From: Candidatus Nomurabacteria bacterium
Lineage (GTDB): Bacteria > Patescibacteriota > Minisyncoccia > Phycocordibacterales > UBA9973
Length of the DNA: 64,000 bases
NCBI GenBank assembly: GCA_963832025.1
Contig: CAWHSF010000003.1
Coordinates: 294,606 to 358,605, forward strand
Direction of reading: 5' to 3'
Of this stretch, positions 2,806 to 51,593 are shown piece by piece. A program made the position numbers and the translations under genes. Each line of letters starts with the position of its first letter. The first letter of the stretch is position 1. The notes below the pieces were generated by a model that made no database searches, was not told the origin of the DNA, and saw only the letters and a program-made list of their open reading frames with translations.

Positions 2806-3075
2806 ATGAGCTCAATCATCAAAAACCCAAGAGTTACCGAAAAGGCTTCATTTGCCGCCGAACAAAATGTTTACACTTTTGATATTTCGCAATCTGCAAA
2901 CAAAAGAGAAATCAAAAAAGCTGTCTTTACTCTTTATAAAGTGCATCCAGTAAAAGTAAATGTTATGACTATTCCAAGAAAGAAAACAATGTCCCAGGGA
3001 AAGAAGGGCATGCGTGGTGGAGGAAGAAAAGCTTTTGTATATTTAAAAAAGGGAGATAAAATAGAATTTATATAA
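2806..3075 (+). CDS. rplW: 50S ribosomal protein L23 (upstream ATG at 2782 lies inside palindromic repeat, so 2806 preferred)
   Basis: SSIIKNPRVTEKASFAAEQNVYTFDISQSANKREIKKAVFTLYKV L23 signature. Confidence 0.88.
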   Translation: MSSIIKNPRVTEKASFAAEQNVYTFDISQSANKREIKKAVFTLYKVHPVKVNVMTIPRKKTMSQGKKGMRGGGRKAFVYLKKGDKIEFI

Positions 3076-3914
3076 TGAAAACATACAAACCGACAAGCAA
3101 ATCAAGAAGGCAAATGACCAATGTGAGCTACAGGGGAGTTTTGAGCAATACCACACCCACCAAATCCCTGACCCATGGTTTTAAAAGAAACGTCGGTCGC
3201 AACAGCCAAGGACGTATCACCATGCGCCACAAGGGAGCCGGACACAAGCGCTTGTATCGAGACGTCGATTTTATTTACAATAAAAAAAACATTCCTGCAA
3301 AAATAGTTTCTGTAGAATACGACCCAAATCGTTCCGCATTTATCGGTCTGGCAGTTTACAAAGACGGAGAAAAAAGATACGTCGTATTGCCGAAATCAGT
3401 CAAACCAGGCGATTCTTTTGTCGTTTCCGAAAAAGCCGAACTAAAACCGGGCAACAGACTCCCTTTGCAATTTATTCCGGTCGGAACTTTTGTTTACAAT
3501 GTTGAAATCAAACCGATGGGTGGCGCAAAGATCGGACGCTCTGCAGGAATTTTCGCCCAAGTTGTCGCAAACGCCGACGGATATACAAATATTAAAATGC
3601 CTTCTACGGAAATTCGCAAAATAAACGAAAAGTGCTGGGCTTGCGTCGGAACTGTTTCCAACGAGGAACATCACTTGGAGAATTATGGCAAGGCAGGACG
3701 CAGTCGCTGGAAAGGAATTCGTCCGACAGTTCGCGGAACAGCTATGAACCCAGTAGACCATCCATACGGCGGAGGTGAAGGACGCCAAGGGCGCGGAACC
3801 AAAAGACCAAAGACTATGTGGGGTAAAGTTACCGGCGGACGTAAAACCCGCGGACCAAAGAAATACTCGAACGTCTTTATTGTTTCTCGCCGAAAAACAG
3901 GAAAGAATAAATAG
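3075..3914 (+). CDS. rplB: 50S ribosomal protein L2
   Basis: GRNSQGRITMRHKGAGHKRLYR...GTAMNPVDHPYGGGEGRQ L2 signature. Confidence 0.95.
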   Translation: MKTYKPTSKSRRQMTNVSYRGVLSNTTPTKSLTHGFKRNVGRNSQGRITMRHKGAGHKRLYRDVDFIYNKKNIPAKIVSVEYDPNRSAFIGLAVYKDGEKRYVVLPKSVKPGDSFVVSEKAELKPGNRLPLQFIPVGTFVYNVEIKPMGGAKIGRSAGIFAQVVANADGYTNIKMPSTEIRKINEKCWACVGTVSNEEHHLENYGKAGRSRWKGIRPTVRGTAMNPVDHPYGGGEGRQGRGTKRPKTMWGKVTGGRKTRGPKKYSNVFIVSRRKTGKNK

Positions 3915-3955
3915 TTCGACGAACTCACTACAAGTAAAAAATAATAATACTTAAA

Positions 3956-4012
3956 ATTGGGACGTCGGACACCTGCTTTAGCAGATGTCCGACGTCTGGA
4001 GGTTTATGCACT
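3956..4012. repeat. palindromic repeat family A, copy A2 (island left border)
   Basis: GACGTCGGACACCTGCTTTAGCAGATGTCCGACGTCTGGAGGTTTATGCAC. Confidence 0.8.
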
Positions 4013-4098
4013 TGTGTAATTTTGCATAAATGTTATAAATGCATTCATATAGTTCTATTCATTCTGGCTTCATAATCCACTCAGAGGAGTGTTACACC

Positions 4099-4290
4099 TT
4101 GAAAGAAAGTGCCACAGTACTTCGCAACAACAACCAAAAGGCGGCCGTTGCGGCCAAGGTGTTTAAGGGGGGCGTTCAAAAACCCCAAAGACAAGATGTT
4201 GCTGCTGACATTCGTCGGCAGTGGGGCAAACCGAGTCACAGCAAAAGTCGCAACTGGCGTTGGGGAGTGGCGCTGGCTGGCATTGCATAA
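4099..4290 (+). CDS. hypothetical small basic protein (~63 aa, TTG start after GAGGAG RBS); first cassette of S10-operon island
   Basis: RBS gaggag 8 nt upstream of TTG; preceded by TTGCAT-17-nt-TATAAA promoter-like unit; followed by hairpins 4296-4360. Confidence 0.25.
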   Translation: MKESATVLRNNNQKAAVAAKVFKGGVQKPQRQDVAADIRRQWGKPSHSKSRNWRWGVALAGIA

Positions 4291-4451
4291 ATAAAGACAG
4301 CCGGAGCTGTCTAAAGAAAGGAGGGAAGGGCGTCGGGATTAACTCGGCGCCCTCTTTACATTTACTTGCATTGTCATAAATAAATGTTATAAATAAAAAC
4401 GAATTCGTAATTAGTGAGCTACGGATAGTAGCTCGCTTTGGGAGAGAAGAA

Positions 4452-4649
4452 ATGGCCAACAGAGGTTCAGCAGTTTTACCGCATCGTAAGCAAGTGAAAA
4501 CCACCATGACAACCTTGCCCCGGCAAACACAGGAACCAGATGTTGTGGAAGAGATCATCGGTCGAGTTTTTCACGGCGGACACAAGCCACAACTTTATCC
4601 ACCCAATCCACGACAACAGCAAGCAGCCGAAGAATCTGCAGAAGAGTAG
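4452..4649 (+). CDS. hypothetical 65-aa protein (second island cassette)
   Basis: ATG preceded by GGGAGAG RBS, own promoter-like TTGCAT..TATAAAT at ~4368-4398, strong terminator 4663-4715. Confidence 0.35.
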   Translation: MANRGSAVLPHRKQVKTTMTTLPRQTQEPDVVEEIIGRVFHGGHKPQLYPPNPRQQQAAEESAEE

Positions 4650-4662
4650 ATCGAATTTCAAC

Positions 4663-4715
4663 GGGCGGGGAGTCGATGTTTCGACACCCCGCCCGCATTT
4701 GCGTTTACTCGATTT
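4663..4715 (+). terminator. intrinsic terminator after 65-aa ORF
   Basis: GGGCGGGGagtcgatgtttcgacaCCCCGCCC + T-rich tail. Confidence 0.6.
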
Positions 4716-4728
4716 TAATATTTTATTT

Positions 4729-4780
4729 CCAGACGTTGGACATCTGCTAAAGCAGGTGTCCAACGTCAGTCCAACGTCTC
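4729..4780. repeat. palindromic repeat family A, copy A3
   Basis: CCAGACGTTGGACATCTGCTAAAGCAGGTGTCCAACGTCagtCCAACGTCTC. Confidence 0.8.
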
Positions 4781-4929
4781 TTCACTTTTGTATTCTTGTG
4801 TTATATTTTTTGTATGGTATAAATATAAGTAGAACTAGTTCCTGCCGCCTAGCAGGGAGGCGGTACAACCTCAAAGCAAAAAAAACAAAGTGGATGCGTA
4901 AGCACACGTAAGCCATTGAGGGTCAGGTA

Positions 4930-5109
4930 ATGCAGAAAGAAGTAAACAAAAAAGCTGATTTGTCTACGACGCCTGTCGTCAAGGTTTCCAGTAGCATCGA
5001 ACCGGTTGGAGCAGCAGAAGCAGCAGGGACATACTGCATCGTGTTCGCTCCGCCGGAAAACCGGAAACCGCGGAACTTGATCGTGTACGACAATCGAGGC
5101 CACTACTAA
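4930..5109 (+). CDS. hypothetical 59-aa peptide MQKEVNKKADLSTTPVVKVSSSIEPVGAAEAAGTYCIVFAPPENRKPRNLIVYDNRGHY (below ORF-track cutoff)
   Basis: GAGGG RBS 8 nt upstream of ATG; upstream promoter-like TGgTATAAAT ~4803-4815 and 5'UTR hairpin; intrinsic terminator 5120-5176 immediately downstream. Confidence 0.45.
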   Translation: MQKEVNKKADLSTTPVVKVSSSIEPVGAAEAAGTYCIVFAPPENRKPRNLIVYDNRGHY

Positions 5110-5119
5110 AGTGGCCACA

Positions 5120-5176
5120 GGGGTTCATCGGCAAGCCAGCTGATGAACCCCACCGTTATTTTTACCCGATTTTTTA
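5120..5176 (+). terminator. intrinsic terminator after 59-aa peptide gene
   Basis: GGGGTTCATCggcaagccagctGATGAACCCC + TTATTTTTaccCGATTTTTT. Confidence 0.65.
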
Positions 5177-5195
5177 TAATTTTAAATTGCGAAAC

Positions 5196-5223
5196 TTGCT
5201 TTTATTTTAAAGTATGTTATACT
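5196..5223 (+). promoter_or_regulatory. sigma70-like promoter TTGCTT-16-TATACT driving candidate sRNA
   Basis: -35 5196-5201, -10 5218-5223. Confidence 0.4.
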
Positions 5224-5229
5224 TTATGG

Positions 5230-5420
5230 TAGATAGCTCCTCCGTGCTTTTTGTGGAGGCCTGTCTCCTGGCAATTCGTGAGTGGCTCCTCCACTCCTCA
5301 GGAGTTGAGCGCTTTGGCAACACTCTGCGGATGCTAGGTTGTAACATTGCTCCATTTTTCTATTCTCCTTGGGTCTGAATTCGGGTTTTGCCTCCCGTAA
5401 TATCAGACCCTATTTTTTTT
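5230..5420 (+). ncRNA. candidate ~190-nt structured sRNA of unknown family inside S10-operon island
   Basis: No ORF; own promoter; multiple nested hairpins (CCTCC/GGAGG, GAGTGG-ctcct-CCACTC, CCTG..CAGG); ends in GGGTCTGA...TCAGACCC stem plus T8 terminator 5371-5420. Confidence 0.4.
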
Positions 5421-5433
5421 ACCTAATTTTTAC

Positions 5434-5511
5434 TTGACCCGGTAGTAGAACTTTGCGATATGTAAAATTTGCATCAAAGATGCGTCGCAAAGTCTCACTA
5501 CTGGGTTGACT
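5434..5511. repeat. repeat family C copy C1 (long hairpin TTGACCCGGTAGTAG...CTACTGGGTTGAC; 3' end = -35 box)
   Basis: ttgacccggtagtagaactttgcgatatgtaaaatttgcatcaaagatgcgtcgcaaagtctcactactgggttgact. Confidence 0.8.
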
Positions 5512-5533
5512 TTTCAATACTTTGTGCTATGAT
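5506..5533 (+). promoter_or_regulatory. promoter TTGACT-16-TATGAT; -35 box contributed by 3' end of repeat C1
   Basis: -35 5506-5511, -10 5528-5533, followed by GGAG RBS and ATG 5556. Confidence 0.5.
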
Positions 5534-5555
5534 ATTAGAGAAGGAGATTTGCACC

Positions 5556-5792
5556 ATGTCGACCCAAGCAACAAAGGAGCGGGTTGGCCCGTTCCTCTTA
5601 ATCGGTTCCCTGTTTGCGGTGCCGATAGGTCTAGCGTTCTTTTACGAGGGTTTCAAAATCCAGGGAGACACATTACTGTCCCCGTCAAAGCTGACATGCT
5701 TTGTAGCTGGCGGGCTAATGGCTCTCTTCGGCATCATCTTTTGCTGGAGACACAACAACGACGGGAGGTTGGACAATGAAAGGTGGCGCTAG
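5556..5792 (+). CDS. small 2-TM membrane protein (78 aa), paralog of following ORFs
   Basis: GGAG RBS; two hydrophobic helices; internal similarity CFVAGGLMALFGIIFCW ~ FWVPGSLLALVGGIYLLY in next ORF. Confidence 0.5.
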   Translation: MSTQATKERVGPFLLIGSLFAVPIGLAFFYEGFKIQGDTLLSPSKLTCFVAGGLMALFGIIFCWRHNNDGRLDNERWR

Positions 5793-5976
5793 GAGGGGTA
5801 CTAGTTTCAACGTGGGTGCTGCAGTTGCGGCGGTGGCGCTCGCGATGGTAGTTTTCATCCACGACGATGCCGCCAAAAGCGCCCCTGACTTTATCGTCAG
5901 ATTTTGGGTGCCTGGTAGCCTCCTAGCTCTTGTGGGAGGAATCTACCTGCTCTACCGCCTCATCGTTCACAAGTGA
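5776..5976 (+). CDS. small 2-TM membrane protein (66 aa), overlaps previous ORF, paralogous
   Basis: RBS-like aggagg; hydrophobic; terminator 5990-6036 downstream. Confidence 0.45.
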   Translation: MKGGARRGTSFNVGAAVAAVALAMVVFIHDDAAKSAPDFIVRFWVPGSLLALVGGIYLLYRLIVHK

Positions 5977-5989
5977 TCGTTTTCACAGA

Positions 5990-6036
5990 CCGGTACCTGC
6001 GCAAAGACGCGGGGCCGGTTTTCGCTTTTTATTTAA
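5990..6036 (+). terminator. intrinsic terminator (repeat D copy 1)
   Basis: accggtacctgcgcaaagacgcggggccggttttcgctttttattt. Confidence 0.55.
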
Positions 6037-6039
6037 TTT

Positions 6040-6067
6040 GACTTTCTTGGATTTTATGCTATGATCT
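6040..6067 (+). promoter_or_regulatory. promoter TTGACT-16-TATGAT (near-copy of 5506 promoter incl. gaggagat RBS)
   Basis: -35 6040-6045, -10 6062-6067. Confidence 0.5.
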
Positions 6068-6083
6068 TCTTGAGGAGATCTTT

Positions 6084-6551
6084 ATGACAACAACAAGGTT
6101 CGGAGGTTCTCTCTGCATCGGTAGAGAGGAACTTGTAATAGCTGCGGTGTTTGTTACCATGGGCTTGGCCTGCCGTGTATCGACAAAAAGCAGTCGTGAA
6201 GCTGCCACAATGGTAATTGTGGTGGGGGTAGTCGCATTGTTAGCCTTACTATGGCAGGGGGTGAGAAAGGCCATTTCCTCCATTCTTCTCCCAACGTGGC
6301 GTGTGGTACCCAGGTTCGCAATCGCTTCGTGGAAGTTTGCGAGGAAGGGTCCGCGATACTGGATTCAGATTGCGGCGGTTGGGCTAATCTTCATCGGGGC
6401 TTTTGTCCTTGTGAGGTTGGATTTCAGCAAAGGAACGTCACTGGCGACGCTCCTTTCTCAAGTGTTAGCGAGCTTCTCTATACTTATTGGAGCGGGTTCG
6501 TACGTTTATTGTATAGGAGTGTTCAAGTTTCCAAACAGGTCCCAAGAGTAA
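6084..6551 (+). CDS. 4-TM membrane protein (155 aa), looks like tandem fusion of the 2-TM unit
   Basis: gaggagatctttATG RBS; 4 hydrophobic helices; terminator 6570-6617 is a copy of the 5990-6036 terminator. Confidence 0.55.
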   Translation: MTTTRFGGSLCIGREELVIAAVFVTMGLACRVSTKSSREAATMVIVVGVVALLALLWQGVRKAISSILLPTWRVVPRFAIASWKFARKGPRYWIQIAAVGLIFIGAFVLVRLDFSKGTSLATLLSQVLASFSILIGAGSYVYCIGVFKFPNRSQE

Positions 6552-6569
6552 ATCGTTTCGTTTCAATTC

Positions 6570-6617
6570 GACCGGCACCCGCGCAAAGACGTGGGGCCGG
6601 TCTTCGCTTTTTATTTT
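6570..6617 (+). terminator. intrinsic terminator (repeat D copy 2)
   Basis: accggcacccgcgcaaagacgtggggccggtcttcgctttttatttt, ~90% identical to 5990-6036. Confidence 0.55.
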
Positions 6618-6736
6618 GAATATGCTATGTTTCTCAGTAGGATAGTTCTTTTGGAGAGCGGTCTCCTGACAGGAACTATCTCGTGTGATAACGGGCTCTA
6701 AGCGTTTAAGCGCGTCCGTTACCACACATTCCGCAA

Positions 6737-6780
6737 CCGGGAGCCAGCTGCTTTTGGCAGGCTCCCGGTCTTTTTATTTT
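6737..6780 (+). terminator. intrinsic terminator closing the island
   Basis: ccgggagccagctgcttttggcaggctcccgg + T-run. Confidence 0.6.
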
Positions 6781-6839
6781 ACGTGAAAAAATGGTTTTTT
6801 TATTTCAGCTTTTCGGAATAAGGGCAATATAAAATCTAG

Positions 6840-6868
6840 TTGACAATTTTTCCTTATTTGCTACTATG
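6840..6868 (+). promoter_or_regulatory. internal promoter TTGACA-17-TACTAT re-initiating the r-protein operon at rpsS
   Basis: -35 6840-6845, -10 6863-6868, 28 nt upstream of rpsS ATG. Confidence 0.5.
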
Positions 6869-6896
6869 AAACCAAGCTCGTAGCGAGCTTTTTATT

Positions 6897-7247
6897 ATGA
6901 CTCGAAGTATCAAAAAAGGATTAAATGTCGACGAAAAACTTCTCTCAAAGATTGTGGGCAAAAACCCGCTCGAGACACCAATGGTAAAAACTTGGAAAAG
7001 AGCCTGCGTCATTTCTCCGGAGATGCTGGGTTTTACTTTTGGTGTGCATAATGGCAAAACCCATGTGGAAGTTTTGGTGACCGAAGATATGGTCGGGCAC
7101 AGACTCGGAGAATTTTCCCCAACCAAGAAATTTATTAAACACGGAGGAAAGATGCAGAAAGAGCTTGAACAGAAGAAAAAAGAAGCGGAGATTACTGCTG
7201 CCAAAGGTGCGACAGCGGCTGCCGAAGATGCTAAGGGTAAAAAGTAG
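6897..7247 (+). CDS. rpsS: 30S ribosomal protein S19 with ~25-aa Lys/Glu/Ala-rich C-terminal extension
   Basis: RSIKKGLNVDEKLL...HNGKTHVEVLVTEDMVGHRLGEFSPTKKF S19 signature. Confidence 0.93.
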   Translation: MTRSIKKGLNVDEKLLSKIVGKNPLETPMVKTWKRACVISPEMLGFTFGVHNGKTHVEVLVTEDMVGHRLGEFSPTKKFIKHGGKMQKELEQKKKEAEITAAKGATAAAEDAKGKK

Positions 7248-7369
7248 AAATGAATCCCGTACGAAATCGCGGACGCATAAAATAAACAAAAATATGAAAA
7301 AGATAAAATATATTATAAATAACAAAAAGGACAACGAAGCGTAAGCGTACGCGTCCTATTTCGTACGGG
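7246..7369. repeat. repeat family B copy B1 (~120 bp: GC-rich palindromic ends around A/T-rich core), ends exactly at rplV ATG
   Basis: CCCGTACGAAATCGCGGACGCATAAAATAAA...AAAAGGACAACGAaGCGTAAGCGTACGCGTCCTATTTCGTACGGG. Confidence 0.85.
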
Positions 7370-7762
7370 ATGAAAGCATTTTTAAAAAATTACAGACAAT
7401 CACCCAGAAAAGTTCGCTTAGTGGCGAGTTTGGTTAAAGGAAAAAGTGTGGCACAAGCGATTGCCGAGCTTGATTTTTTAGCAAAACGTTCAGGATTACC
7501 GATTAAGAAACTTTTACTTTCTGCAGTGGCCAATGCAAAACAAATGGGCATTGAAAGTGAAAATTTATTTATCAAAGAATTACGAGTAGACAAAGGAATT
7601 GTGATGAAGAGGATGATGCCTGCAGCCATGGGTACCGGACACCGCATCAATAAACGCACCAGCCACATCAATATTCTTTTGGCTGAAAAAGTTGTTGCTG
7701 TTCCAAAAACCAAGGTTGCCAAAGTTAAAAACACAAAAACTAAAAAAGTAGCAAAAAAATAA
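7370..7762 (+). CDS. rplV: 50S ribosomal protein L22 (C-terminal K-rich tail)
   Basis: SPRKVRLVASLVKGKSVAQAIAELDF L22 signature; ATG directly abuts repeat B1. Confidence 0.93.
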   Translation: MKAFLKNYRQSPRKVRLVASLVKGKSVAQAIAELDFLAKRSGLPIKKLLLSAVANAKQMGIESENLFIKELRVDKGIVMKRMMPAAMGTGHRINKRTSHINILLAEKVVAVPKTKVAKVKNTKTKKVAKK

Positions 7763-9546: not shown

Positions 9547-9918
9547 ATGATTCAAAATGAAACTTTAGTAAAAATAACAGATAATGCCGGAGGCACCGTG
9601 GGAAAGGTGTTCAAAATTTTAGGCTCTTCAAAAAAGAGATATGCTACCCTTGGGGAAGTGGTAATCATCTCCGTTAAAGTGGCGAGCCCTCGAAAGGCGG
9701 TAAAAAAGAAAGATGTTCATCAAGCTGTTGTAGTACGCACTCGTGGAGCTTATCGCCGAAAAGACGGTTCATATATTCGTTTTGATGATAACGCTGTTGT
9801 GATTTTGGAAAAAGGTAAAAAAGATCCAAAGGCAGGTCGTGTTTTCGGACCGATTCCGAGAGAGTTGGCAGAAAAAGGTTTTCAAAAAATAATTTCGTTG
9901 GCGCAGGAAGTAATATAA
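9547..9918 (+). CDS. rplN: 50S ribosomal protein L14
   Basis: MIQNETLVKITDNAGG...VVVRTRGAYRRKDGSYIRFDDNA. Confidence 0.95.
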   Translation: MIQNETLVKITDNAGGTVGKVFKILGSSKKRYATLGEVVIISVKVASPRKAVKKKDVHQAVVVRTRGAYRRKDGSYIRFDDNAVVILEKGKKDPKAGRVFGPIPRELAEKGFQKIISLAQEVI

Positions 9919-9924
9919 TAAGAA

Positions 9925-9965
9925 CAGACGTTGGATATCTGCTAAAGCAGGTGTCCAACGTCTCC
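9925..9965. repeat. palindromic repeat family A, copy A4 (rplN-rplX spacer)
   Basis: CAGACGTTGGATATCTGCTAAAGCAGGTGTCCAACGTCTCC. Confidence 0.8.
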
Positions 9966-9978
9966 AAAAATAAATTTT

Positions 9979-10197
9979 ATGAAGATGAAAAAAAATGACA
10001 ATGTGAAGATAATTACGGGCAAGGACAAAGGTAAGTCCGGTAAAATTGTGCGTGTTTTGGTGAAAGAGAATAAAGTTGTGATTGAAGGTATCAATATGAT
10101 GAAAAAACACCAACGCCCACGAAAAACAGGGGAGAAGGGGTCTATGATGAATGTGGCCATGCCGATTCACGCTTCCAACGTTAAAAAGACAGAATAG
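9979..10197 (+). CDS. rplX: 50S ribosomal protein L24 (short form)
   Basis: KKNDNVKIITGKDKGKSGKIVRV KOW motif. Confidence 0.9.
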   Translation: MKMKKNDNVKIITGKDKGKSGKIVRVLVKENKVVIEGINMMKKHQRPRKTGEKGSMMNVAMPIHASNVKKTE

Positions 10198-10233
10198 TTC
10201 GACTTCGCTCACTATAAATAAATTTAAAAACAT

Positions 10234-10806
10234 ATGGCAACAAAACATTTAACCGTAAAAAACAAAGAACAAGAGGCATTTGAAAAAATGAAAAGTATGT
10301 TTCATTATAAAAATGCTATGGCTGCGCCAAAACTAAAAAAGGTTGTTGTAAATACTGGCACTGGCACACCGATGAAAAAAGATAAAAACAAAAATACTTC
10401 TATCGCGGAACGTTTAGCAAAAATTACCGGACAAAAAGGAGCACTCCGAGGCGCAAAACAATCCATTTCATCTTTCAAGGTTCGCCAAGGTGACCCAATC
10501 GGTATCGTGGTTACTATCCGTGGAAAGAGAATGTATGCATTCTTGGAAAAACTTATAAATGTGGCTATCCCTCGCACAAAAGATTTCAGAGGAATCAATC
10601 GCACCGCTGTGGACAATATCGGCAACCTGACTATCGGCATCAAAGAACACACCATCTTCCCGGAAACAGCCGATGAAGATATTCGCGATGTATTTGGCAT
10701 GTCTATCACTTTGGTTTCCACCGCAAAAAATAAAAAAGAAGGTACCGCATTTTTTGAAATTCTAGGTATTCCTTTCAAGAAGGAAGAAGTGATTAAGAAA
10801 AAATAG
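10234..10806 (+). CDS. rplE: 50S ribosomal protein L5
   Basis: RQGDPIGIVVTIRGKRMYAFLEKLINVAIPRTKDFRG L5 signature. Confidence 0.95.
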   Translation: MATKHLTVKNKEQEAFEKMKSMFHYKNAMAAPKLKKVVVNTGTGTPMKKDKNKNTSIAERLAKITGQKGALRGAKQSISSFKVRQGDPIGIVVTIRGKRMYAFLEKLINVAIPRTKDFRGINRTAVDNIGNLTIGIKEHTIFPETADEDIRDVFGMSITLVSTAKNKKEGTAFFEILGIPFKKEEVIKKK

Positions 10807-10887
10807 GGTTTGACCCGGGTAGTGAATTTTGGCGAAGCGCAAAGCGCAATAATAAATTATCGCCAAAATCTACTACCGGGTTTGACT
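10806..10887. repeat. repeat family C copy C2 (rplE-rpsN spacer)
   Basis: gggtttgacccgggtagtgaattttggcgaagcgcaaagcgcaat...atcgccaaaatctactaccgggtttgact. Confidence 0.8.
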
Positions 10888-11211: not shown

Positions 11212-11212
11212 T

Positions 11213-11330
11213 CCCGAACGAAATCGCGGACGCATAAAATAAATAAAAACATGACAATGACAAAATATATTAAAAATAACAAAAAGGACAACGAGGTAAG
11301 CGTAAGCGTACGCGTCCTATTTCGTACGGG
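11213..11330. repeat. repeat family B copy B2, ends exactly at rpsH ATG
   Basis: ~85% identical to 7246-7369 including both ends. Confidence 0.85.
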
Positions 11331-11717
11331 ATGGATCCAATTTCAAATATGATAATCGTGATGAAGAATGGAAGCTTGGCAGGCCTAGAGTCTGTAACTT
11401 TTCCTTATTCCAAAATGAAAAATGCTATCGGCGAATGTCTAAAAAAAGAAGGCTATGTTTCCGAAGTTTCCAAAAAAGTAAAAAAAGGCATTCCGGTGTT
11501 GGAAATAAAATTAGTGTATACAGACAAAAAACCAAAAATTACCGAAGTGGAGAGAATTTCCAAACAATCCCGCCGTGTTTATTTTGGGATGAAAGACATT
11601 CATTCTGTCCGTAATGGCTCGGGTTTACTTGTGCTTTCAACACCGAAAGGAATTTTATCCGGTAAAGAAGCAAGGAAAGAACAGGTCGGAGGAGAAGCAT
11701 TGTTTAGGTTGTGGTAA
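11331..11717 (+). CDS. rpsH: 30S ribosomal protein S8
   Basis: MDPISNMIIVMKNG...LLVLSTPKGILSGKEA; ATG directly abuts repeat B2. Confidence 0.93.
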   Translation: MDPISNMIIVMKNGSLAGLESVTFPYSKMKNAIGECLKKEGYVSEVSKKVKKGIPVLEIKLVYTDKKPKITEVERISKQSRRVYFGMKDIHSVRNGSGLLVLSTPKGILSGKEARKEQVGGEALFRLW

Positions 11718-31178: not shown

Positions 31179-31252
31179 CCGTCCTTAGCTCAGCTGGTTA
31201 GAGCACAGAGCTTATACCTCTGGGGTCCTTGGTTCGAATCCAAGAGGACGGA
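31179..31252 (+). tRNA. tRNA with anticodon UAU (Ile2-type AUA decoder), C1:G72 acceptor end
   Basis: Cloverleaf: acceptor CCGUCCU/AGGACGG, D GCUC/GAGC, anticodon stem CAGAG/CUCUG loop CUUAUAC, T CUUGG-UUCGAAU-CCAAG. Confidence 0.75.
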
Positions 31253-31267
31253 CAAGCAAATAAATTT

Positions 31268-39263: not shown

Positions 39264-39277
39264 GTAAATTTAAAGTG

Positions 39278-39364
39278 CGGAGAGAGAGGGATTCGAACCC
39301 TCGGTCCTTTTAAGGGGACGACAGTTTAGTAAACTGTTGGTTTAAACCACTCACCCATCTCTCC
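39278..39364 (-). tRNA. type-II (long variable arm) tRNA, Ser-like, anticodon loop UUACUAA (apparent ACU anticodon, atypical)
   Basis: rc: GGAGAGA-UG-GGU..ACC-A-ACAGU-UUACUAA-ACUGU-long arm-CGAGGGUUCGAAUCCCUC-UCUCUCC-G. Confidence 0.6.
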
Positions 39365-49701: not shown

Positions 49702-50954
49702 TTTCCTAATGCATTATGGTAAACTTCCTCTAGTTTTTTTACACTCTCGTGTATATCATATTTTTGAACCATCTTGAAGCTAACCTCACCCATCCTCTCT
49801 CTCAATTCTTTGTCTTGAATTAATTTCAAAGTTTGCTCGGCTAGGTCTTTAGGATCCAAGGTTTTAAACAAAAATCCGTTGCCATTCACAAAATAACGGG
49901 AAGCGCTCATTTTTGTATCGGAAATAATAATCGGTTTTCCACAAGCCATCGCTTCAAGCACCACCATACCTTCCAGTTCCGCGAGCGACGGCAAAATAAA
50001 AATATCGCAGGCATTAAAAGCCAAGATTTTATCTTCTTCACTGACCAATCCTAAAAAGGTGATATGTTTTCGCATTTTTAGATTGTCCACTAATTTTTCT
50101 AATTTATTTCGCAAGATTCCACCGCCCGCAATCATTAGATACACATTAGGATTTACTTTGAGTATCTCTGGTATTGCTTTGATGAGTGTATCCACGGATT
50201 TTTCCGGGAACAGACGCCCGACGAAAAGCAATTTTATTTTATCTTTCGGTATTTCAAATCTTTCGTAAAAATTTCCAATTGGAAATTTCTGAAAATGTTT
50301 CAAATTTATTCCATTGCTGATGACAATCGATGGCTGGTCACGCTTGTTTAATTTATGTAGCAGATTTTTTGCCATTTCGGAGGGATAGATTATTATTTCT
50401 GCTTTACTGTAAACCCACATCAGATATTTGTTCCATAAGCTAAATAAAATGGGCTGAATAATATGGGGGGTGTCGGCAAATAAATTTTCCGGTTGCGAGT
50501 GCGAATGCGCCACGATTTTTATATGAAGTGCTCGCGCTGCTTTGATGGCGACAACCGCTCCCGACATTGGCAGAATAATATGCACGATGTTTATTTTTTC
50601 TTCCAGAAAAACTTTTTTTAATTCATTCACTGTCGGAAAGGCTAAATGCCAGCCGTTTGATTTAGGAATAGGAATACTGCGATAATGATAAAGCCTGATG
50701 CCATCGTAATAATCGTTGTTCGCGTGTTCCTTAGAGGTTGCTCCGACAAAAATGACATGATGTCCTTGTTCTTTTAATAATTTGGAAAATCGCAAAATAG
50801 ACACAAGCACTCCGGCTTTGTCTCCGCCAATCGGGTCGCAAATCATCGCGATATTCAATTTCCCGGTAGTAGATTTTTGCAATGCAAGTTTACTTGCGCG
50901 CTCTGCGCTTTGCGAAAACTCACTACCGGGTTTTCCTCTTTTTTCTTCAGGCAT
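49698..50954 (-). CDS. GT4-family glycosyltransferase
   Basis: EGMVVLEAMACGKPIIISD (EX7E motif), two Rossmann halves. Confidence 0.85.
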   Translation of the reverse strand: MPEEKRGKPGSEFSQSAERASKLALQKSTTGKLNIAMICDPIGGDKAGVLVSILRFSKLLKEQGHHVIFVGATSKEHANNDYYDGIRLYHYRSIPIPKSNGWHLAFPTVNELKKVFLEEKINIVHIILPMSGAVVAIKAARALHIKIVAHSHSQPENLFADTPHIIQPILFSLWNKYLMWVYSKAEIIIYPSEMAKNLLHKLNKRDQPSIVISNGINLKHFQKFPIGNFYERFEIPKDKIKLLFVGRLFPEKSVDTLIKAIPEILKVNPNVYLMIAGGGILRNKLEKLVDNLKMRKHITFLGLVSEEDKILAFNACDIFILPSLAELEGMVVLEAMACGKPIIISDTKMSASRYFVNGNGFLFKTLDPKDLAEQTLKLIQDKELRERMGEVSFKMVQKYDIHESVKKLEEVYHNALGK

Positions 50955-51565: not shown

Positions 51566-51593
51566 ATTGACTTTTGTCTATTTTCTGGTATAT
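51566..51593 (+). promoter_or_regulatory. promoter TTGACT-16-TATATTGTAAA (copy 1)
   Basis: -35 51566-51571, -10 51588-51593. Confidence 0.45.

Follow-up and report, generated by a model that had tools for sequence, protein, structure and literature searches.

Do two neighbouring units of small membrane-protein genes that carry near-identical control signals descend from one recently amplified gene? This question is raised by a 64,000-nucleotide stretch of a Candidatus Nomurabacteria chromosome (contig CAWHSF010000003.1, positions 294,606 to 358,605 of the forward strand; hereafter the window), in which three small open reading frames (ORFs), named A, B and C, lie one after the other between the ribosomal-protein genes rplB and rpsS. 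A and B share a transcription unit that runs from promoter P1 to terminator T1, and C occupies the next unit, from promoter P2 to terminator T2. The initial annotation took them for the recent amplification of one unit with two transmembrane (TM) helices, together with its promoter, ribosome-binding site and terminator. Our analysis points to a different reading, which we hold to be reasonably probable: P1-A-B-T1 and P2-C-T2 would be two compact, insulated accessory units in a variable islet, encoding fast-evolving helical-hairpin membrane proteins. Judged from their sequence, they are best described as lineage-specific orphan units and not as a demonstrated gene-family amplification. Only the terminator is demonstrably a copy.

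T1 and T2 form a 47-nt repeat in which 43 positions are identical (91%), with an alignment score of 38 and a z of 20 against shuffles, and the near-identity first noted for the two terminators holds. The stems differ at three places, all of which keep the pairing (U-G to C-G twice, G-C to G-U once), and the copy appears to be recent because the loop and flanks are conserved as well. The repeat has no third place in the window, and no other pair of terminators reached a z above 4.4. The two leaders had also been called near-identical. Both do have the sequence TTGACT-16-TATGAT followed by a strong Shine-Dalgarno (SD) site and an ATG; however, from promoter to ATG they score 15 against each other, no better than the 14 and 13 that P1 and P2 score against an unrelated consensus promoter at 51567, whereas truly orthologous promoters (those of the P1 unit and of rpsS, each with its counterpart in a sister species) score 35. 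The likeness of P1 and P2 is thus best read as shared consensus features only. Promoters of this type occur just four times in the window, the third being that of rpsS at 6840. From the -10 element to the ATG there are 22 nt in the P1 unit and 18 nt in the P2 unit, and the units measure 529 and 579 nt.

In a global alignment of unit 1 with unit 2, only the promoter hexamers, the SD sites and the stretch from stop codon to terminator align, and the coding DNA stands at random level. A duplication as recent as the 91% identical terminators imply would have left the coding DNA about 90% identical, yet the coding DNA is unalignable, and recent amplification is therefore not supported.

Protein comparisons gave weaker signals. 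BLASTP produced no alignment of A with B or of A with C, and for B with C a match at E = 1.1. Smith-Waterman scores were judged against composition-preserving and local-window shuffles. The comparison of A with B gave p 0.04-0.11, and the helix motif said to be common to these two ORFs (TM2 of A and TM2 of B) is marginal, at a local-shuffle p of about 0.04. The two halves of C, which had been counted as two further copies of this unit, do not resemble each other (z ~0, p 0.5). A matches the first half of C (residues 1-82; p 0.003-0.005) and B the second (residues 83-155; p 0.02-0.04), and the crossed comparisons, A with the second half and B with the first, are at or below the shuffle mean. 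In a semi-global alignment, A and B joined score 44 against C, compared with 13-17 +/- 6-7 in local shuffles (p ~0.0005-0.03; z 3.8-4.9 with BLOSUM62, 4.7-5.5 with BLOSUM45 and 2.4-2.9 with PAM250), and 1 of 154 hydrophobic 150-aa windows taken from unrelated membrane proteins as an empirical null reached this score. We regard protein paralogy among A, B and C as suggestive and unproven. If real, it would pair A with C(1-82) and B with C(83-155) in collinear order and would not amount to four copies of a 2-TM unit; a duplication, if one occurred, would be an old one that took in the entire 4-TM module and involved a fusion or fission of genes. A collinear, in-frame 16-nt match between the coding sequences (D7, 5825/6370) was considered as a trace of homology and rejected, an out-of-register, out-of-frame match (D5) being of similar quality.

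The ORFs themselves are largely as first described. A and B overlap by exactly 17 nt (ATGAAAGGTGGCGCTAG), and C has 155 codons; the start of A is corrected by 1 nt (Table 1). B has an SD site of its own, GGGAGG (5763-5768), inside the end of A and 8 nt upstream of its start. Each ORF fills its promoter-terminator interval, from the SD site and ATG to just before the terminator. Gene callers predicted all three, and the annotated frame is the best of six for each of them under a codon model trained on the long genes of the window. Hydropathy and an AlphaFold2 (AF2) model bear out the predicted topology of two TM helices each in A and B and four in C, for which the model, built from the single sequence, places helices at 14-32, 37-64, 74-86, 91-114 and 120-148. 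Lys and Arg residues number 6 inside and 2 outside in A, which indicates that both termini are inside (N-in/C-in), and the central loop of C is strongly basic, with 8 of them. All three proteins fit the N-in/C-in topology in these models, and all follow the positive-inside rule.

Table 1. Features of the rplB-rpsS gap, with positions counted from the first letter of the window
Feature	Position	Strand	Description
Whole rplB-rpsS islet	3915..6896	+	Chain of mini transcription units ending with P1-A-B-T1 and P2-C-T2
Islet small ORFs	4100-4291, 4452-4649, 4930-5109	+	59-65 aa, hydrophilic or basic
Palindromic insertion	5439..5505	+	Hairpin like a miniature inverted-repeat transposable element (MITE) or repetitive extragenic palindrome (REP); 67 nt, just upstream of P1; fold -35.7 kcal/mol, z -7.9
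Promoter P1	5506..5533	+	TTGACT-16-TATGAT; extended -10 TG (5525-5526); 10/12 to consensus
ORF A	5556..5792	+	78 aa, 2 TM; SD AAGGAG at 5541-5546, then ATG
ORF B	5776..5976	+	66 aa, 2 TM; +1 frame relative to A, 17-nt overlap
Terminator T1	5988..6034	+	13-bp stem with one bulged A, loop CAAAGA, U-rich tail; -21.7 kcal/mol
Promoter P2	6038..6065	+	TTGACT-16-TATGAT; extended -10 TG; 10/12 to consensus
ORF C	6084..6551	+	155 aa, 4 TM and an amphipathic linker helix; SD GAGGAG at 6072-6077, then ATG
Terminator T2	6570..6616	+	Copy of T1 (43/47) with the same 13-bp stem, bulged A and loop CAAAGA; -26.5 kcal/mol
Two strong hairpins	6636..6735	+	Between T2 and the ancestral T3; window-specific
Terminator T3	6736..6790	+	Orthologous to the terminator directly after B2 in L002

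How these units evolve can be followed in L002, an 8-kb contig of a sister species whose S19 is identical, whose L2 is 96% identical and whose ribosomal-protein genes have a synonymous divergence (dS) of about 0.85. L002 carries a syntenic, fast-diverging islet of 2.5 kb, in which the P1 promoter and leader are identical at 44 of 48 positions. The ortholog of A, A2, is found in L002 and in L003 (64 aa, 41% identity, z 11-15). The proportion of nonsynonymous differences between the two (pN 0.36) is below that of synonymous differences (pS 0.72), and a conserved block, CFV-GGL...F-W-HN, differs mostly at third codon positions; for these reasons A is taken to be a real gene under purifying selection, yet a fast-evolving one, with a nonsynonymous divergence (dN) of 0.49 compared with 0.008-0.13 for neighbouring ribosomal proteins.

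The partner of A2, B2, has 74 aa and two TM helices, and its SD site and start position are homologous to those of B; the B and B2 proteins have no detectable sequence similarity, scoring at or below the shuffle mean. In L003 and partly in L004, which are independent assemblies, A2 and B2 are identical to the L002 copies; L001-L007 all stem from peat and fen samples. A2 and B2 (L002 3212-3643) lie in one reading frame and are separated by a single TAA and 12 nt that carry the SD site, whereas A and B overlap in different frames, a difference that hints at a split 4-TM ancestor or at stop-codon readthrough. This arrangement and the weak collinear similarity of A and B to C are why we infer an ancestor with four TM helices that was split or fused.

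The C unit is absent from L002, where B2 is directly followed by the ortholog of terminator T3; the region of T3 and the rpsS promoter (window 6734-6896) aligns by blastn with L002 3661-3826 at 72.6%. As B2 runs straight into T3 there, the segment of about 5977-6735, with T1, P2, C, T2 and the two hairpins, is specific to the window. Together with T3 these hairpins (6636-6792) fold at -68.4 kcal/mol (z -6.7), and 6636-6735 has no similarity to the coding DNA of A, B or C. A possible decayed promoter remnant, P3', lies at 6613-6642, with a weak 16/22 match (the D4 repeat) to the -10 region of P2. The segment 6613-6735 could be a decayed third unit or another small RNA (sRNA); the former was rejected, as it relies on that 16/22 match and coding similarity gave no support.

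The surroundings of the units are also variable. The 5' part of the window carries tuf and then the S10 operon genes rpsJ, rplC, rplD, rplW and rplB (3075-3914). A gap of 2982 bp follows, of which the two membrane-protein units take up the last third, and beyond it come rpsS (6897-7247), rplV, rpsC and further genes to secY. No L30 gene was found in this ribosomal-protein gene run, from tuf to secY. Metagenome-assembled genomes named Candidatus Nomurabacteria or Paceibacterota encode ribosomal proteins that are identical, or more than 85% identical, to those of the window, which places the bacterium in the Candidate Phyla Radiation (CPR). In the nearer Nomurabacteria/Paceibacteria relatives, with RpsS at some 57% identity or above (loci including L002, L008-L047 and L169-L183), the rplB-rpsS gap measures 75-5101 bp, compared with 9-230 bp in more distant loci, which include further CPR groups, Planctomycetota and Clostridia. 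The relatives, even those with a gap of only 136 bp, conserve the rpsS promoter and a hairpin that immediately precedes the rpsS ATG. The cargo differs from locus to locus: a 68-aa ORF, a PemK-family toxin, a 66-aa ORF and a GIY-YIG protein in L178-L183, proteins of 316, 245 and 123 aa in L012, other membrane proteins in L033, L092 and L120, and nothing called in L169. In the Nomurabacteria clade the S10 operon is thus predicted to be split into two transcription units, and the gap between terminator and promoter would be neutral ground that gathers accessory and selfish genes.

Outside this gap, L169-L174 carry a 137-aa ORF and a 161-aa N_methyl (pilin-like) gene between rplE and rpsN (L169 ~9630-10525), and other ribosomal-operon junctions therefore seem to accept cargo too. 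The hairpin before rpsS (AAGCTCG...CGAGCTT and a U-run, 6874-6890, in the region 6868-6896) is terminator-like, stands between the rpsS promoter and its ATG and is conserved in L002 and L012; it may be a leader or attenuator. rpsS has no recognisable SD site.

We searched widely for relatives of the three proteins. A word-indexed search of 5.8 billion protein clusters returned only the self matches of A, B and C, and an exhaustive phmmer search with C through 1.84 billion representatives gave the self match and one spurious repeat protein (P0004). Neither these three proteins nor A2 and B2 have a Pfam or NCBIfam match at E <= 1. Searches with PHROGs and Pfam for holins gave nothing at this threshold save one meaningless match at E = 0.73, the PADLOC defence-protein hidden Markov models (HMMs) likewise gave nothing, and a PDB sequence search gave no match; membership in the holin, SMR or type I toxin-like families, which had been proposed as places to look, is thus not borne out. 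In tblastn searches with the same five proteins against 183 related loci and the window, only A and A2 found each other, and no window paralogs appeared. Scans of genomes and metagenomes based on RpsS found relatives and no further A/B/C modules, and the conserved P1 leader, used as an exact pattern, had 0 matches in JGI metagenomes. As to a phage origin, there was no blastn match in 50,697 phage records, and the terminator pattern was absent from an IMG/VR scan. Rfam returned no family in 3900-6900 even at E <= 5 and no known RNA family in the loci of 13 relatives. CPR genomes commonly encode small membrane proteins that are orphans, and A, B and C are for that reason unremarkable in themselves; the hotspot and the small repeated elements around them are the more unusual aspects of the locus.

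The mechanism that we propose starts from the position of the islet, between the terminator after rplB and the dedicated promoter of rpsS. Strong sigma-70-type promoters, short leaders and intrinsic terminators would insulate each unit. A and B would be co-translated from one short-leadered mRNA, B by way of the SD site inside the end of A, and would probably assemble through Gly/Ala small-xxx-small helix faces into a membrane unit of four helices, of which C may be the single-chain counterpart. The near-identity of T1 and T2 would stem from a recent terminator copy or short-tract gene conversion and not from a recent gene duplication; the C unit is present in one sister species and absent from the other. 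Taken from this context, A, B and C could be dispensable envelope proteins, encoded by an accessory islet and quick to evolve. Protective, exclusion or host-interface roles are candidates, and they form the least certain step.

Several points weigh against this account of two insulated accessory units. The coding status of B and C would follow from signals, frame statistics and topology only, and an ORF of 155 codons is by itself only mildly unlikely by chance in DNA of 50% GC. The AF2 model of C is of low confidence (predicted local distance difference test score, pLDDT, 56). The statistics of paralogy are borderline: an unrelated membrane window scored 56 against C, the maximum, and hhalign with the A/A2 profile gave P 0.015 for B and 0.16 for C, with probabilities below 3%. 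The C unit may have been inserted here or deleted in L002, and the outgroups, which lack the whole A-B module, do not polarise the change. Function would be read entirely from context.

Two other histories of the C unit are each possible, if doubtful. The first is an ancient tandem duplication of the 4-TM module, from P-A-B-T to P-C-T, with fusion or fission, fast divergence, gene conversion of the terminator and loss in the L002 lineage. It would account for the collinear similarity of A and B to C, the equal topology and similar length of the units, their common promoter architecture and spacing and the single TAA between A2 and B2 in one frame, and divergence of the necessary speed is seen in A (dN 0.49) and in B and B2. 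However, this similarity stands at the border of significance and varies with the matrix (z is lowest with PAM250), the D7 match is no stronger than the out-of-frame D5, and both a loss in L002 and a conversion event have to be added.

The second, to which we give a similarly tentative standing, is that C is unrelated to A and B and was inserted as an independent cassette with a copied terminator, for example by a circular intermediate recombining at the terminator hairpin. P2-C lies exactly between T1 and T2, which are direct repeats, L002 passes from B2 to the T3 ortholog, the codon usage of C is atypical, and the gap is a hotspot that holds unrelated cargo in relatives. The analysis found, though, neither a recombinase nor an att-like core or a donor sequence, no further copy of the terminator in the window and no C homolog as donor anywhere searched, and the weak collinear similarity would have to be coincidence.

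The composition of the islet is compatible with horizontal acquisition, or with birth from T-rich spacer DNA. Its GC content is 0.49-0.54, about 3 standard deviations above the window mean of 0.40 +/- 0.04, and on the + (coding) strand T exceeds A. At third codon positions A, B and C have a GC content of 0.54-0.65, compared with 0.38 +/- 0.06 in the genes of the window, and their synonymous log-likelihood of -0.11 to -0.20 (compared with +0.09 +/- 0.04) puts their codon usage outside the range of the genome. The three small ORFs upstream each have a promoter, an SD site and a terminator of their own, two of the promoters sharing AAATGTTATAAAT; their syntenic L002 ORFs are in each case the best match, at a similarity that is not significant (p 0.06-0.15).

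We consider it unlikely that B, C and possibly other islet mini-ORFs are chance ORFs or very young proto-genes in transcribed spacer DNA that is both T-rich and GC-rich. They are orphans with codon usage outside the range of the genome, protein conservation between the sister species is not significant for B and B2 or for the other islet ORFs, and T-rich sequence readily encodes TM-like segments, from which de novo TM proteins have been described in yeast (PMC7005711). On the other side, a consensus promoter, an SD site, an ATG and a terminator lie precisely around each ORF. The ORFs fill their intervals, which for 155 open codons in a given frame has a chance of (61/64)^155, about 6e-4, and all three have a positive-inside bias. 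A is under purifying selection by the measures given above, and the start and SD site of B are conserved in L002.

An equally speculative view takes the rplB-rpsS gap of Nomurabacteria as an expression-ready nursery, in which tiny genes would be born or captured, given consensus promoters and terminators, duplicated, split or fused and turned over in species-level time. A, B and C would then be envelope proteins outside existing families, young or evolving ultra-fast, and possibly at a symbiont-host or phage interface. If the genes are expressed, the islet would offer tractable material for studying how small genes arise and turn over in the reduced genomes of symbionts.

A candidate structured sRNA (~5230-5428) lies directly upstream of P1, with a promoter at 5196-5223 and a terminator hairpin at 5371-5418. 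It is 73% identical to L002 2962-3152, where neutral sites are near saturation, and was found only in the window lineage and L002, with no Rfam match. Its fold (-70.4 kcal/mol, z -5.1) has 4 compensatory pairs, drawn from only two sequences, and it contains two CUCCUCC motifs. Against the A, B and C mRNAs its longest helix is 11 bp, compared with 9-12 in 30 shuffles, and no site is conserved in L002; the duplexfold energies of these pairs are not interpretable, as long internal loops are allowed.

A further idea casts the three proteins as toxins that damage the membrane in the manner of type I toxins or holins and that this sRNA candidate holds in check, in an addiction or abortive-infection module; it is by analogy conceivable and in our view quite improbable. 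The small hydrophobic N-in/C-in hairpins with charged tails, the neighbouring sRNA candidate with its compensatory pairs, the order sRNA-P1-A-B that is syntenic in L002 and the PemK toxin-antitoxin system in the same hotspot of L178-L183 would suit it. Set against them are an sRNA-mRNA helix no longer than in shuffles, leaders of only about 12-16 nt with strong, unobstructed SD sites, unlike those of type I toxin mRNAs, proteins of 66-155 aa with 2-4 TM helices, larger than typical type I toxins, and the lack of PHROG, PADLOC or Pfam holin or toxin matches, of an endolysin and of phage genes. The recent amplification of one 2-TM unit into four copies (A, B and the halves of C) with its promoter, ribosome-binding site and terminator is very improbable: the Gly-rich motif shared by TM2 of A and TM2 of B (p ~0.04; hhalign P 0.015), the score of A2 with B (p ~0.005) and the 91% identical terminators speak for it, but coding DNA that is unalignable despite such terminators excludes it in its recent form, the halves of C are at z ~0, A with the second half of C and B with the first are at noise, BLASTP finds nothing, and the promoters resemble each other as they do unrelated promoters.

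Set beside known systems, the two units resemble the small multidrug resistance (SMR) pairs EbrAB and YkkCD and the Fluc/CrcB pairs insofar as all are tiny, co-transcribed, adjacent or overlapping genes for helical membrane proteins that form a small bundle and exist in split and fused versions. They differ from both in that SMR and Fluc subunits have four TM helices each, compared with 2+2 or four in total here. In addition, there is no match at E <= 1 to the SMR HMM (Multi_Drug_Res, PF00893), TM1 of A and of B has no acidic residue, and in place of the conserved membrane-embedded Glu of SMR TM1, C has E15 and E16 only at the cytoplasmic edge of TM1. There is no CRCB HMM match, no Fluc motif and no riboswitch of a known class (Rfam E <= 5, 3900-6900).

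Class II holins and pinholins share the size of 65-95 aa, two TM helices, the N-in/C-in topology, a charged C-terminal tail and Gly-rich helix faces; here, however, there is no PHROG or Pfam holin match, no endolysin, spanin or phage gene nearby and no DNA similarity to phages, and the setting is a chromosomal ribosomal-protein operon with rplB, rpsS and mini-ORFs as flanks. With type I toxin-antitoxin systems the units have in common small hydrophobic proteins beside a conserved small structured RNA gene, here a candidate, and a hotspot that in relatives holds a toxin-antitoxin system, whereas A, B and C exceed such toxins in size and span the membrane several times, their mRNAs have short, unstructured leaders, and there is no significant sRNA complementarity.

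Like integron gene cassettes, the C unit is a short ORF between two imperfect hairpins that are nearly identical and have an extrahelical base. T1 and T2 are, however, canonical intrinsic terminators with U tracts and without RYYYAAC/GTTRRRY cores, no integrase is adjacent, both units come with a promoter of their own, and the copies number only two. The de novo TM proteins of yeast (PMC7005711) are similar in being lineage-restricted, TM-rich small ORFs in T-rich DNA that evolve fast and have no homologues. Unlike them, the ORFs here are bacterial and carry a full set of consensus signals for expression; A has survived a species split with a dS of about 0.85, and no ancestral non-coding state was observed.

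In this locus the regulatory shell and the coding content thus have very different histories: near-identical terminators and consensus-like promoters surround proteins that have diverged beyond recognition. Repeated signals do not by themselves show gene amplification, and caution is in order where they are read in this way. The otherwise ultra-conserved S10 operon is split here, and the split is a hotspot for toxin-antitoxin genes, GIY-YIG and membrane proteins, sRNA candidates and MITE-like hairpins.

On both sides of the hairpin inserted upstream of P1 stands a direct repeat, TTGAC (5434-5438 and 5506-5510), and the -35 box of P1 has therefore been rebuilt. The hairpin belongs to a palindromic family of about 60-70 nt (CCCGGTAGTAGA...TCTACTACCGGG) with copies at 5439-5505, ~10815-10872 and ~50860-50935. 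Two of the three stand exactly at the -35 box of strong promoters, are flanked by TTGAC and are missing at the orthologous sites of L002; its sequence suggests a MITE-like element that targets TTGAC. One Logan contig, L001, breaks off precisely at 5436.

Two further repeats were observed. A 122-nt repeat, 91% identical, lies at 7255-7372 and 11212-11333, with terminal inverted repeats ATCCCGTACGAAAT/ATTTCGTACGGGAT, and its copies end in the ATG of rplV and of rpsH; as the rpsS-rplV gap of L002 is only 6 nt, it appears to be a lineage-specific insertion that supplies the sequence just 5' of two ribosomal-protein starts. A REP-like, perfect-hairpin palindrome of 36-40 nt (GACGTCGGACACCTGCTTTAGCAGATGTCCGACGTC) is found in intergenic DNA at 3961-4000, 4728-4767 and 9927-9962 and at 115-165 of L002. 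Elsewhere in the window, ARAGORN predicts a tRNA-Ile with anticodon TAT (31179-31253) and a tRNA-Ser with anticodon ACT (39277-39364), both unusual as unmodified anticodons.

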